A stretch of DNA of 38,049 nucleotides from IMG/VR virus record IMGVR_UViG_2802429217_000005, positions 1-38,049 of that record, one strand, 5' to 3'. Below are positions 13,552 through 33,415 of this stretch, one piece after another; within the stretch, counting starts at the first letter, position 1; each line of letters starts with the position of its first letter. The position numbers and the translations under genes were made by a program. Under the pieces are notes generated by a model. It did no database searches. It saw only the letters and a list, made by a program, of their open reading frames with translations, and was not told the origin of the DNA. This DNA comes from a virus. Lineage: Duplodnaviria; Heunggongvirae; Uroviricota; Caudoviricetes.

Positions 13552-13726
13552 GAAAACAACCCATTATCAAATACAAGGCCCGACATGAAAACGCCAGAAA
13601 AAGGCATTTTCGGACACTTTCATGTCGGACCTTTACGGATGAAATATTAAAAAAAACAAAAAGTTATATTCGAGAAGTACCGACACGATTTTCCCTGAAA
13701 AATTTTCATAAATAGTGAAAAACCGC

Positions 13727-13738: not shown

Positions 13739-14299
13739 CCGTAGCCTGCCGGATCACCGGAAAGGACCCGCAAAACCGAGAATAAGTATCAATACTATTT
13801 GTGATTTGAATGATGCACATCATTGAAACGCCATTCATCCATATACCAGCAGCATTCGGTGTTGCACTTCGTAACTCTGTGACTACGGTTATAAAAGCAT
13901 TGGCAACTTTTGCCACCGGCAAGTCTTCAATGGATTTCCCCTGCCGGTTTTTTATTTTCGTCGATGCATAACATTGCATTTACATCAATAGCAGCTATTG
14001 TCATTAGTATGTTACATCGATGCATGGGTGGTATTGGCGGTCTTCGCCGACCGGTTCTGTGTAGCTCCCTATGACCGGTTTTTTATTTCTAAGATTACAG
14101 AAGCCCTTCACTGTATGAAGGGCTTCTGTAACTCTTCTTACTTAGTAATTTTCGCACCTTCCGGTATTTCCATGAGTTGAGAAAACCTCATACTATCCGA
14201 CAATAATCATCAATATACGATAAAGACATCTGACCAGATTGCAGTATTAAAAGCACTCATGCAGACTACGCCCCTCATATCATATACAAGGGGATACTG

Positions 14300-18307: not shown

Positions 18308-18586
18308 TTATCCACGAAGCATGACAATGAACTCATCCATGCCTACACGGCTGGCTATCTCGTTGTATTCCTCAACAAGAGCCAGCAATTCTGAATTAGC
18401 AGCCATGAACTCATCAAAAACCTTATGGATGGCATCACTGTTTAATAAAACAATGTTCTTTCCTGAAAGGCGATCAGGGGTAGAAAATATAACTGTTAAA
18501 CGACTAAAGGCCCTGGCTCGTTCAGCATTAACATCCTCAATACGCTGCAACAAGCTGGAGCACCTGGAAATATCATCAATATTCAC
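18308..18586 (-). CDS. hypothetical protein
   Basis: 92-aa ORF starting at a GTG with AGGAG 5 nt upstream; no family recognised. Confidence 0.4.
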   Translation of the reverse strand: MNIDDISRCSSLLQRIEDVNAERARAFSRLTVIFSTPDRLSGKNIVLLNSDAIHKVFDEFMAANSELLALVEEYNEIASRVGMDEFIVMLRG

Positions 18587-19105
18587 TCTACTCCTGCCAT
18601 CTGGATGATAATCATTTCACGGAGAGAAGCACTCAGAAGTACCACTGAAGTATAACTGGTGACCAGCTGCTTACACATCTGTTGCCATCCTGCTGATGAT
18701 AAGTCGATATTAACCCTTCTGTCTATAAACGAAACAAAGGATAAGTTCAGGTTTTAAACACACTGCCAGGATAAAGTATTGTATACAGTATAGAAGAGCG
18801 TTATTGAATGACATAAAAAACCAGACCTAATCCCTTATCCGGAATATATATCAAATAAACGGGGAAAATGTATTAAGATGGCGTTCCTATTCTCTCCATC
18901 CCTGATGTCCACGTAACTCGTTATAGAATCAGAACGCCATCTGAATACACACAAAAAAGCTGGCTTCACACCCTCCTGCATGTGTGAACGCAGTGCCCGA
19001 CCACGTGCTTTCGCAACCAGCGAAAATCAGTTTTAAATACCGAAAAACGATAAGAATATATCAGAACTTCCAAGCATCCTGCTTGGCTTAGATATTAATC
19101 GAAGA

Positions 19106-20191
19106 TTAGCTCCTGTTCTTATCTAATTGTGCATTTCGCAATTTATCGTTCAGCACCAATATTTCACCAACTGTTTGTTCAAAACGCCCGGACTCAAGTT
19201 CAACCCCAATCGTGCGACGCCCCAATCCCATTGCTGCTTTTATTGTTGCCCCCGATCCCATAAAAAAATCCGCAACCACATCCCCCGGACGACTGCTGGC
19301 AGAAATTATCTGACGCAACATATCCGCCGGTTTTTCGCAGGGATGCTTACCCGGATAATACTGTACGGGCTTATGCGTCCAGACATCCGTATAAGGAACG
19401 GCGGCCGATACAGAAAAATAACGCCGCAGAGATTTGTATTCCTCAAGCAGACTGGCATATTGCCGGTTCAGTTCACTGTATGTGCTGACCAGCAGTTGGT
19501 GTGGCGTTGCCAGCTCCCCACGCTGGTGTTTTTCTTCTGCAACACGCGCGAACAGCGCCTGCAGTTTTCTGTAATCAGCTTCGTTCGGTAACTGCCACTG
19601 ACTGGTACCAAACCAGTGCGACACCATGTTTTTCTTTCCGGTGGCTTCCGCTATCTGTTTGGACGTTATTCCCAGTGATTCACGCGCATCACGAAAGTAA
19701 AAAATCAGCGGGGCCATGACGTGTTGTTTAAGCTCGCGCTCCTTTGCCGCATAGCCGGCATTTTTTGGCTGATATGGCCCCTGATAATGTTCGGCAAACA
19801 GAATGCGCTCTGTTGCCGGGAAATACGCCCGCAGGCTTTCTTTGTTGCACCCGTTCCAGCGTCCGGACGGCTTCGCCCAGATAATGTGGTTCAGCACATT
19901 AAAGCGCTCACGCATCATGATTTCGATATCAGATGCCAGGCGATGACCACAAAACAGGTAAAGACTTCCGGCAGGCTTCAGTACCCGCCAGAACTGAGCC
20001 AGACACTGGTCCAGCCATTTCAGGTAATCATCGTCTCCCTTCCACTGGTTATCCCAGCCCTCGGGCTTCACTTTAAAATATGGCGGGTCTGTGACTATAA
20101 GATCGACAGAGTTTTCCGATAAGGTCTGGATAAATTCCAGGCAATCGGTGTTGATTAACTCACAACTGGATATTTTTACAGTATCAACCAT
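19106..20191 (-). CDS. orphan DNA methyltransferase (N6-adenine/N4-cytosine class, DPPY motif)
   Basis: 361-aa ORF with motif IV DPPY near the N-terminus (LIVTDPPYF) and the AdoMet-binding motif near the C-terminus (DFFMGSGAT); no adjacent restriction endonuclease gene recognised. Confidence 0.85.
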   Translation of the reverse strand: MVDTVKISSCELINTDCLEFIQTLSENSVDLIVTDPPYFKVKPEGWDNQWKGDDDYLKWLDQCLAQFWRVLKPAGSLYLFCGHRLASDIEIMMRERFNVLNHIIWAKPSGRWNGCNKESLRAYFPATERILFAEHYQGPYQPKNAGYAAKERELKQHVMAPLIFYFRDARESLGITSKQIAEATGKKNMVSHWFGTSQWQLPNEADYRKLQALFARVAEEKHQRGELATPHQLLVSTYSELNRQYASLLEEYKSLRRYFSVSAAVPYTDVWTHKPVQYYPGKHPCEKPADMLRQIISASSRPGDVVADFFMGSGATIKAAMGLGRRTIGVELESGRFEQTVGEILVLNDKLRNAQLDKNRS

Positions 20192-20331: not shown

Positions 20332-20355
20332 TAAAAAGCCTTCACTGCGGAAGGC
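20332..20355 (-). terminator. candidate intrinsic terminator between the winged-helix gene and the methyltransferase gene
   Basis: On the minus strand: GCCUUC-CGCAGU-GAAGGC followed by UUUUU, overlapping the stop of the 65-aa ORF. Confidence 0.5.
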
Positions 20356-21680: not shown

Positions 21681-22346
21681 CTATGAAAATGCCGCCTTTT
21701 GTTTTGAACGTGTTCTCTCCACTAACAATAAAGCTTCACTATCCAGCCGATGAAAAATGTGTTTCATTGCAACCCAGTGACCAGTAAATGTCTTGGACCA
21801 GTTTTTGGTTGTTACTCCCACCAGTAACGCCAGTTCCTGGTATTCATAACCTTCCCCACCAAAAAGCTCAGCTTTTACCGCCTGCGCCGCCAACCAGATC
21901 AACGTCTTCAGGCGCACCAGAGTTTTTCCTGCAATTTTTCTGGTACCGGATTGAGCATTAAATTCAGTCCACGCCCACTGCGTTATCGCGATCTTATACT
22001 CCCAGCAAATGCTACCGCTGTAACACCACAGCACCCACGCCTTCTGATGCTCTTCAAGAGACAGAACGGCGCGTCGCCATGATGATGTCGAAAACTCAAC
22101 CGGACTGACCAGGGCAATTGATGAACCTTTCGCCAGCGATTGCTTTCCCGGGATCGGTGGATTATCCAGCGTTACTATTTTTCCAGTGACCTTATCGCGG
22201 TACCGGATTTTTTTACGTCTGTAACGCCCTGTATTGAACATGGCATTCTCCTGCCAGGCTTCAAGCTGACCTTTTGTTGCTCCACTCAAATCAGCGGTGG
22301 CGATCGTGAGCTGCTCACGCACAAACTGTAAATACTGGTTATTCAT
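21681..22346 (-). CDS. putative late antiterminator Q (non-lambda Q family)
   Basis: 221 aa from the ATG at 22346, which overlaps the rusA stop; position directly after RusA and before a promoter-terminator pair matches Q; family identity is from recall only. Confidence 0.5.
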   Translation of the reverse strand: MNNQYLQFVREQLTIATADLSGATKGQLEAWQENAMFNTGRYRRKKIRYRDKVTGKIVTLDNPPIPGKQSLAKGSSIALVSPVEFSTSSWRRAVLSLEEHQKAWVLWCYSGSICWEYKIAITQWAWTEFNAQSGTRKIAGKTLVRLKTLIWLAAQAVKAELFGGEGYEYQELALLVGVTTKNWSKTFTGHWVAMKHIFHRLDSEALLLVERTRSKQKAAFS

Positions 22347-24503: not shown

Positions 24504-24659
24504 TTACTCCTCAGGTTCGTAAGCTGTGAAGACAGCGACCTCCGTTTGGCTGGTTCGGATTCGTACCTCACAGAGATCTTTCCTCGTTACCAGTGCCGTC
24601 ACAATGACGGTTAAACAGATGACGATCAGGGCGATTAACATCGCCTTTTGCTGCTCCAT
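24504..24659 (-). CDS. hok: Hok-family type I toxin (HokD/RelF-like)
   Basis: 51-codon ORF missed by the >=60-aa track: MEQQKAMLIALIVICLTVIVTALVTRKDLCEVRIRTSQTEVAVFTAYEPEE, near-identical to E. coli HokD as recalled; AGGAG 9 nt upstream. Confidence 0.85.
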   Translation of the reverse strand: MEQQKAMLIALIVICLTVIVTALVTRKDLCEVRIRTSQTEVAVFTAYEPEE

Positions 24660-24841
24660 AGCCTGCTTCTCCTAGCCTTTCGGCACGTAAGAGGCTAACC
24701 TACATTTGTGAGACATAGATTGGGCCTCAGATTAATGTTAAGCGTCTTGCAGGACGCTTAATGTTAACTGTGCTTTTCTTTATCTGCCTTTTGGTGTTCA
24801 TGCCTGAGACAGATAGCCTCAATCACCCGCAGCGATTTTAC

Positions 24842-31930: not shown

Positions 31931-31962
31931 ACTATAAAACTAAATAGATTTAGTTTTATAGT
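31931..31962. repeat. 32-bp palindrome with 15-bp perfect arms (candidate operator)
   Basis: ACTATAAAACTAAAT-AG-ATTTAGTTTTATAGT; arms perfectly complementary apart from the central dinucleotide; overlaps a TTGACT hexamer. Confidence 0.45.
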
Positions 31963-33357: not shown

Positions 33358-33415
33358 TTTTCTGGTGACGTTTGGCGGTATCAGTTTTACTCCGTGACTG
33401 CTCTGCCGCCCTTTT
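33358..33415 (+). ncRNA. dicF: DicF small RNA
   Basis: TTTCTGGTGACGTTTGGCGGTATCAGTTTTACTCCGTGACTGCTCTGCCGCCC followed by TTTTT matches the recalled 53-nt DicF sequence and its terminator. Confidence 0.8.

Follow-up and report, generated by a model that had tools for sequence, protein, structure and literature searches.

The late-operon context of a long hairpin

The window analyzed here, that is, the whole 38,049-nt stretch of DNA, is a lambdoid E. coli prophage (38 kb). The 511 nt queried at 18600-19110 are 100% identical to a prophage of strain ARS-C301, and the gene names used for the window come from the RefSeq annotation of that strain. According to this annotation, the minus strand carries every late function (Q, methyltransferase, holins and terminase), and its gene order reads Q, a membrane ORF, a 65-aa ORF, a DNA methyltransferase, a 519-nt spacer, a 92-aa ORF, TerB and DUF3927, followed by holins, endolysin, terminase and the head/tail genes. 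A long hairpin, referred to as H2, is located within the spacer in the 3' flank of the methyltransferase gene (Table 1), and an earlier note on this DNA was correct in placing it between the methyltransferase and the downstream genes. Since the late genes and a promoter-like site just after Q are all on the minus strand, the hairpin is encoded in the sense orientation of the late operon, which depends on Q. A terminator-like hairpin with a T-run closes the 65-aa ORF at its 3' end, shortly before the methyltransferase (20338-20355, minus), so that several terminators stand in series along the late leader.

Table 1. Positions of the features discussed in the text, given in the window unless another sequence is named.
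Feature	Position	Strand	Basis or remark
Antiterminator Q	about 21681-22346	minus	
Promoter-like site just after Q	21673-21645	minus	
DNA methyltransferase, 361 aa, DPPY motif near N-terminus	19106-20191	minus	RefSeq WP_047671474.1
Spacer holding the hairpin	18587-19105		between methyltransferase and ORF 18308-18586 (both minus)
Small hairpin CCAAGCA/TGCTTGG	19070-19076 / 19080-19086	minus	20 nt past methyltransferase stop
Structured block with a final hairpin of intrinsic-terminator type and U6	18953-19021	minus	sequence, conserved stretches, folds
Long hairpin (H2), 81 nt	18869-18949	minus	sequence, repeat search, fold, conserved pairing, strand asymmetry
H2 core arms, AGATGGCGTTC / GAACGCCATCT	18876-18886 / 18932-18942		perfect 11 bp, 45 nt between
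H2 full arms, 25 nt	18869-18893 / 18925-18949		repeat search; 31 nt between
Degenerate remnant of second hairpin (H3)	18736-18840	minus	repeat search; z = -0.36
Truncated, decayed tRNA-Thr(UGU) remnant	18654-18706	minus	~80% identity over 54 nt to tRNA-Thr of L004, L062
H3 in relatives	L040:4136-4235; L002; L041; L062:1655-1775		

The perfect 11-bp inverted repeat enclosing about 45 nt that the earlier note had reported was found again, and a repeat search extended its arms to 25 nt with 22/25 positions (88%) complementary. In the minus sense, H2 is predicted to fold into a 7-bp outer stem, a 12-bp stem and a 5-bp stem, separated by two 1x1 mismatches and topped by a small branched tip, which gives a helix of about 24 bp in the window. 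The further complementarity that had been noted within the enclosed segment thus corresponds to the 5-bp inner stem and two small apical hairpins. RNA folding, which had been proposed as a check, gave a minimum free energy (MFE) of -32.5 kcal/mol for the minus strand (z = -6.0, with 0/200 shuffles as good) and -28.2 kcal/mol for the plus strand (z = -4.0). When the 38-kb window was scanned for inverted repeats with 25-nt arms and loops of 3-100 nt, the 22/25 match of H2 was the top one, whereas the best match in 60 first-order Markov simulations of the window was 20/25 and none of the 60 reached H2. Only one local inverted repeat in the 38 kb is longer. The H2 inverted repeat is non-random.

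The same cannot be said of the second, 7-bp hairpin to which the earlier note had drawn attention. It is present as described, just past the methyltransferase stop, but about 2 perfect 7-bp stems with a 3-nt loop are expected by chance in 38 kb (estimated as 38,000 x 4^-7) and it is not conserved: its stem carries a mismatch in the EC42405 variant, and unrelated sequence replaces it in the other lineages. No U-tract follows it.

Conserved pairing and strand asymmetry among relatives

Seven distinct H2 sequences were recovered from E. coli genomes and IMG/VR contigs and were assigned to lineages A (the window), B1 and B2 (AREA_497 and RM8082), C (C5), D and E (viral contigs L040 and L041) and F (52F4). 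The earlier note would have given up its hairpin if the pairing were not conserved in homologous prophages, yet the long helix is kept in 5 of the 6 other sequence variants. It is the MFE fold in lineages A, D and E (-31 to -34 kcal/mol) and is kept in F as well; in D and E the helix is even longer than in the window, at about 31 bp (z = -6.5 and -4.2). In B1 and B2 the long helix lies within 0.4-2.2 kcal/mol of the MFE, and an alternative fold is similar or better. A riboswitch-like role for this alternative fold (UCUGAU:AUCAGG) was rejected, as it competes in B1 and B2 only, falling 6-9 kcal/mol behind the long helix in A, D and E. Lineage C has a degraded helix, with mismatches at 3 of its 12 core pairs (z = -0.76).

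Across the seven variants, 88.5% of the cells of the proposed helix pair, compared to 34-54% after the partners have been shifted by 1-3 columns, a control that is partly circular because the structure was derived from the same sequences. Individual pairs change stepwise between lineages, for example U-A, U-G and C-G at pair 15/91 and G-C, G-U and A-U at pair 25/81. A column-shuffle control for covariation was not significant, as the seven sequences are close relatives and their changes are mostly one-sided, and statistical covariation is not claimed for H2.

The changes are strongly asymmetric between the two strands. When the helix is read in the minus sense, 44 of the 182 cells are G·U pairs, against 2 if it is read in the plus sense, and a count from the per-pair table placed substitutions toward G·U in 14 helix columns on one strand versus 2 cells on the other. 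Pairing is possible in 87% of the cells in the minus sense but in only 64% in the plus sense or by Watson-Crick rules, and in B, D and E the sense folds (-27 to -34 kcal/mol) are far more stable than the antisense folds (-6.5 to -12 kcal/mol). Since a DNA palindrome, also one in neutral decay, is expected to change symmetrically, the bias suggests that selection has acted on the minus-sense RNA. Judged from these sequence comparisons, H2 is an RNA-level structure in the sense of the late transcript. Among the options raised by the earlier note, a structured RNA is therefore the one borne out, with pairing retained mostly via G·U pairs that exist in the minus sense only, whereas a protein-binding site is disfavored by the lower symmetry of the relatives at the DNA level; the conserved Watson-Crick symmetry expected of a palindromic operator or recombinase site, equal on both strands, was not found.

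The apical motifs GAGUUACGUG and AUCAGGG are kept in most lineages. The identity of H2 between lineages is about 79-83%, which is not above that of the surrounding 1.8 kb (87-88%), so shared ancestry accounts for much of the similarity. A coding role was also considered and rejected for the 48-aa minus-strand ORF at 18835-18981, whose ATG is lost in the EC42405 variant (ATGCAGG to ATCTGG) and which is stopped after 16 codons in lineage B. Likewise, a methyltransferase target was rejected on reading the sequence, since H2 contains a single GANTC-like site and this is not kept in lineage B.

A conserved terminator-like block and a decaying downstream cassette

Directly upstream of H2 in the minus sense lies a structured block whose closing stem is formed by GCUGGUU and AAGCCAGC (or CUG and CAG) and whose upper stem pairs UUCACAC (18982-18988) with GUGUGAA (18965-18971). 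The block ends in a U6 tract, corresponding to the T-run at 18953-18958, and H2 begins 3-4 nt past this tract. The predicted fold is branched and cloverleaf-like with an ordinary energy (z about -0.1 to -0.5), while about 65 nt of the sequence are highly conserved, including stretches that are invariant across lineages; at the closing pair, lineage A has U-G and lineage C has C-G. The segment 18953-18993 combines the G+C-rich stem and the U-tract of 5 or more that characterize an intrinsic terminator, and it is absent from a simple terminator scan because its loop is 10 nt. The block is probably the terminator of the methyltransferase unit. We noticed that its sequence is more conserved than terminator function requires. 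A scan of species genome contigs with the 19-mer of the block returned chance matches in unrelated taxa and one probably contaminated contig only. The block and H2 of the E. coli prophage were seen on a 2736-nt contig binned as a Bacillota metagenome-assembled genome (L037, JAEWMQ010000075.1), which is identical over about 300 nt to the IMG/VR viral contigs L013, L015 and L020; its assignment to Bacillota is probably due to contamination or mis-binning.

On the other side of H2, a second hairpin (H3) follows directly in lineages B, D, E and F. It is about 95 nt long with a near-perfect stem of about 40 bp (-51 to -54 kcal/mol, z -4.8 in these relatives) and is absent in lineage C. Intact tRNA-Thr(UGU) and tRNA-Gly(UCC) genes come next in E, F and C, as seen in L041 and L062. 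The window retains a degenerate remnant of H3 and a truncated remnant of the tRNA-Thr gene, the latter not called by ARAGORN or Rfam in the window. In lineage B, the 800-nt untranslated spacer between methyltransferase and holin (L002:2480-3285, minus) is highly structured as a whole (z = -9.75) and holds at least three long hairpins together with several intrinsic terminators. Lineage F lacks the methyltransferase but keeps the order tR', block, H2, H3, tRNAs and holin; therefore, H2 belongs to the late leader rather than to the methyltransferase.

In the window, accessory genes (the 92-aa ORF, TerB, DUF3927 and DUF1883) now stand between this cassette and the holins. Homology to lineages B and D stops exactly at 18869, the 3' end of H2, which places H2 at a mosaic junction. 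Because H3 and the tRNA-Thr gene are decaying in the window lineage, H2 itself may have become dispensable there. Outside the prophages, a 74%-identical match to the H3 region was observed on the 159-kb plasmid p48B2a (NZ_CP128583.1; L063:2501-2604), where it lies among IS elements and adjoins a gene for an LPS heptose-phosphate phosphatase; this match looks like a prophage fragment.

Distribution, known families and candidate roles

The 101-nt H2 region was found at 56 places in 54 of the 5426 complete E. coli genomes (about 1%), with a median of 1 per genome and always in the same prophage context. Once more divergent types are counted, about 59 of the 5426 genomes carry the module, with identities of 79-100%. 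A search of host genomes for additional copies, as the earlier note had suggested, revealed no dispersed copies, and neither the window nor the relatives' loci contain a second one, the covariance model finding nothing extra. The option of a small repeat element was dropped on this distribution of a single copy per prophage, and the dispersed repeats REP/BIME, ERIC/IRU and MITEs were rejected for want of many copies in the host genomes. Among 50,697 phage records, DNA searches for close as well as remote similarity gave no match to H2; a metagenome scan with a gapped hairpin pattern yielded no new lineage, 12 of its 17 loci being chance matches, and a literature search with the H2 arm sequences returned no paper. 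The methyltransferase family is present in 2752 genomes and is thus far more widespread than H2, so the H2 module is a lineage-specific 3' flank.

The Rfam scan (release 15, at gathering and permissive thresholds), which had also been proposed as a check, returned nothing on H2 in the window or its relatives, and H2 falls in no described family. Elsewhere, Rfam matched only DicF and sok in the window, and tRNAs in the relatives. The sok antitoxin RNA match (24657-24826, minus) adjoins a truncated hokD, and the DicF sRNA match is on the plus strand (33360-33411). ARAGORN called 0 tRNAs in the window and no RF00005 match falls on H2, and a tRNA identity was rejected with no cloverleaf recognized by either method. 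Stx2e prophages carry the ileZ-argN-argO tRNAs, followed by stx2e, in the slot that H2 occupies here; descent from these tRNAs was rejected as the spacer has no similarity to the ileZ-argN-argO cluster. Scanning and sequence reading detected no sigma-70-like promoter just upstream of H2 and no credible one between the terminator and H2, and a separate sRNA gene was rejected on this ground.

RNase III substrates include a size class of helices longer than two turns, such as the T7 R sites and lambda sib. With 24-31 bp of mostly continuous double-stranded RNA on the transcribed strand, H2 exceeds the length of about 20 bp used here to recognize such a site. It resembles the T7 R sites and sib in being an irregular helix of over two turns that a polycistronic phage transcript carries in a non-coding spacer, and it resembles lambda sib/tI in that the full structure would require antitermination, being present only where transcription has passed a terminator. 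There are differences too: H2 has no sequence relation to the T7 R sites or sib and its cleavage by RNase III is putative, it lies wholly downstream of its terminator without overlap, unlike sib, and the antiterminator concerned is the late Q instead of the early N. Another comparison is offered by the Stx phage Φ24B, in which an 80-81-nt hairpin precursor yields the 20-nt RNA 24B_1 (PMC4426718, PMC10732415). Both are long hairpins of about 80 nt from lambdoid E. coli phages, encoded in non-coding spacers of the late region, but the 24B_1 locus is lom-vb_24B_43 and not the methyltransferase-lysis spacer, a promoter is not predicted for H2, and H2 gave no significant alignment to the 24B_1 locus (HM208303, 45400-46100; best E = 0.15 over 31 nt), nor did its covariance model find a match on L061. 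The position of H2 is also that of the Q-to-lysis/stx tRNA cassettes (ileZ-argN-argO), directly downstream of a methyltransferase of the same family, and its relatives carry tRNA-Thr and tRNA-Gly just downstream, of which the tRNA-Thr remnant is left in the window; H2 itself, however, is not a tRNA.

On the favored reading, H2 encodes a long, nearly continuous double-stranded RNA hairpin in an untranslated, structured late leader between the methyltransferase and lysis genes. Since it starts so soon after the terminator U-tract, it would be made only in read-through transcripts, mainly after Q antitermination in lytic growth. Cleavage by RNase III at H2 would then separate the methyltransferase message from the downstream tRNA/lysis part; alternatively, H2 may be a structural barrier with an influence on the stability of the RNA or on the access of Rho. 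Because the helix is in the RNase III size class, processing or stability is the most economical role, and a cis element fits better than a separate gene because there is no promoter just upstream and, in most lineages, no U-tract after H2. We tentatively favor the reading that H2 may act in cis on the late transcript, as a processing or stability signal of the RNase III type.

It is rather unlikely that H2 is passive filler that keeps the long leader folded, or a relic palindrome that looks similar across lineages through recent ancestry. The family is indeed small and young, as its distribution and identities show, significant covariation is lacking, the helix is degraded in C, H3 and tRNA-Thr have decayed in the window, and a mosaic junction falls at 18869. 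However, neutral decay should produce G·U pairs equally on both strands instead of the bias observed, the helix is extended and not eroded in D, E and F, and H2 is retained where the methyltransferase has been lost. The main rival, in which H2 would be a precursor cut from the late or read-through transcript and matured to a short trans-acting regulatory RNA, is in our judgment unlikely. Its 81 nt put it in the size class of the 24B_1 precursor, likewise a long hairpin of a lambdoid late region, and both the RNA-level conservation on the sense strand and the retained apical motifs would suit such a precursor, but similarity to the 24B_1 locus or to any of the phage records is missing, H2 has neither a promoter-like site just upstream nor a terminator of its own, and the window contains no other stretch of 10 nt or more complementary to H2. 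More elaborate, and improbable, is the idea that H2, together with H3 in the relatives, could be a dedicated RNA module dependent on Q antitermination, either as the source of a trans-acting sRNA that would adjust genes of the host or the phage at the lysis decision or as a double-stranded decoy or sensor for host RNase III or an RNA-sensing defense.

The two remaining explanations are less probable still. A DNA-level element, whether a palindrome bound by a regulator, recombinase or transposase, or the termini of a small mobile element (miniature type), would account for the good Watson-Crick palindrome of the window lineage and its coincidence with the homology breakpoint, but it is very improbable given that the symmetry is poor in the relatives, the antisense fold collapses, and the single copy per prophage comes with no empty site or flanking target duplication that we could see. 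The least credible reading is an intrinsic or back-up terminator: H2 is a stable hairpin, UUUU comes after it in lineage A (18865-18868, minus sense), and the region has several terminators, yet the lower stem is A/U-rich, those 4 U are all that A provides while B-F have no U-tract, the terminator scan made no call, and a proper terminator already stands directly upstream. H2 was rejected as a terminator accordingly.

The Q-to-lysis space of lambdoid prophages is the site of Shiga toxin genes, tRNAs and several regulatory RNAs, and its RNA biology affects the timing and strength of late-gene and moron expression. In this setting, H2 is an undescribed sequence family with a familiar kind of RNA structure, and the prophage lineage that carries it is rare and occurs in livestock and ETEC E. 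coli. As an RNase III site or an sRNA precursor, it would add one more case of post-transcriptional control of a late transcript; as a relic, it would record the decay of a leader cassette of hairpins and tRNAs after moron insertion; in either case the impact of H2 is local and leaves the field unchanged. Should H2 be a novel RNA module acting through an sRNA or as a decoy or sensor, lambdoid phages would have a late-leader RNA of a new class.

Other symmetric sequences were observed elsewhere in the window. An inverted repeat with 27-nt arms (81% complementary) and a perfect 16-bp palindrome, at 13575-13633 and 14095-14131, lie near the gene for the terminase small subunit and may have to do with cos or packaging. 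At 31931-31962 there is a perfect 15-bp palindrome, ACTATAAAACTAAAT/ATTTAGTTTTATAGT, about 200 nt downstream of the repressor gene and before the DUF1391 ORF.
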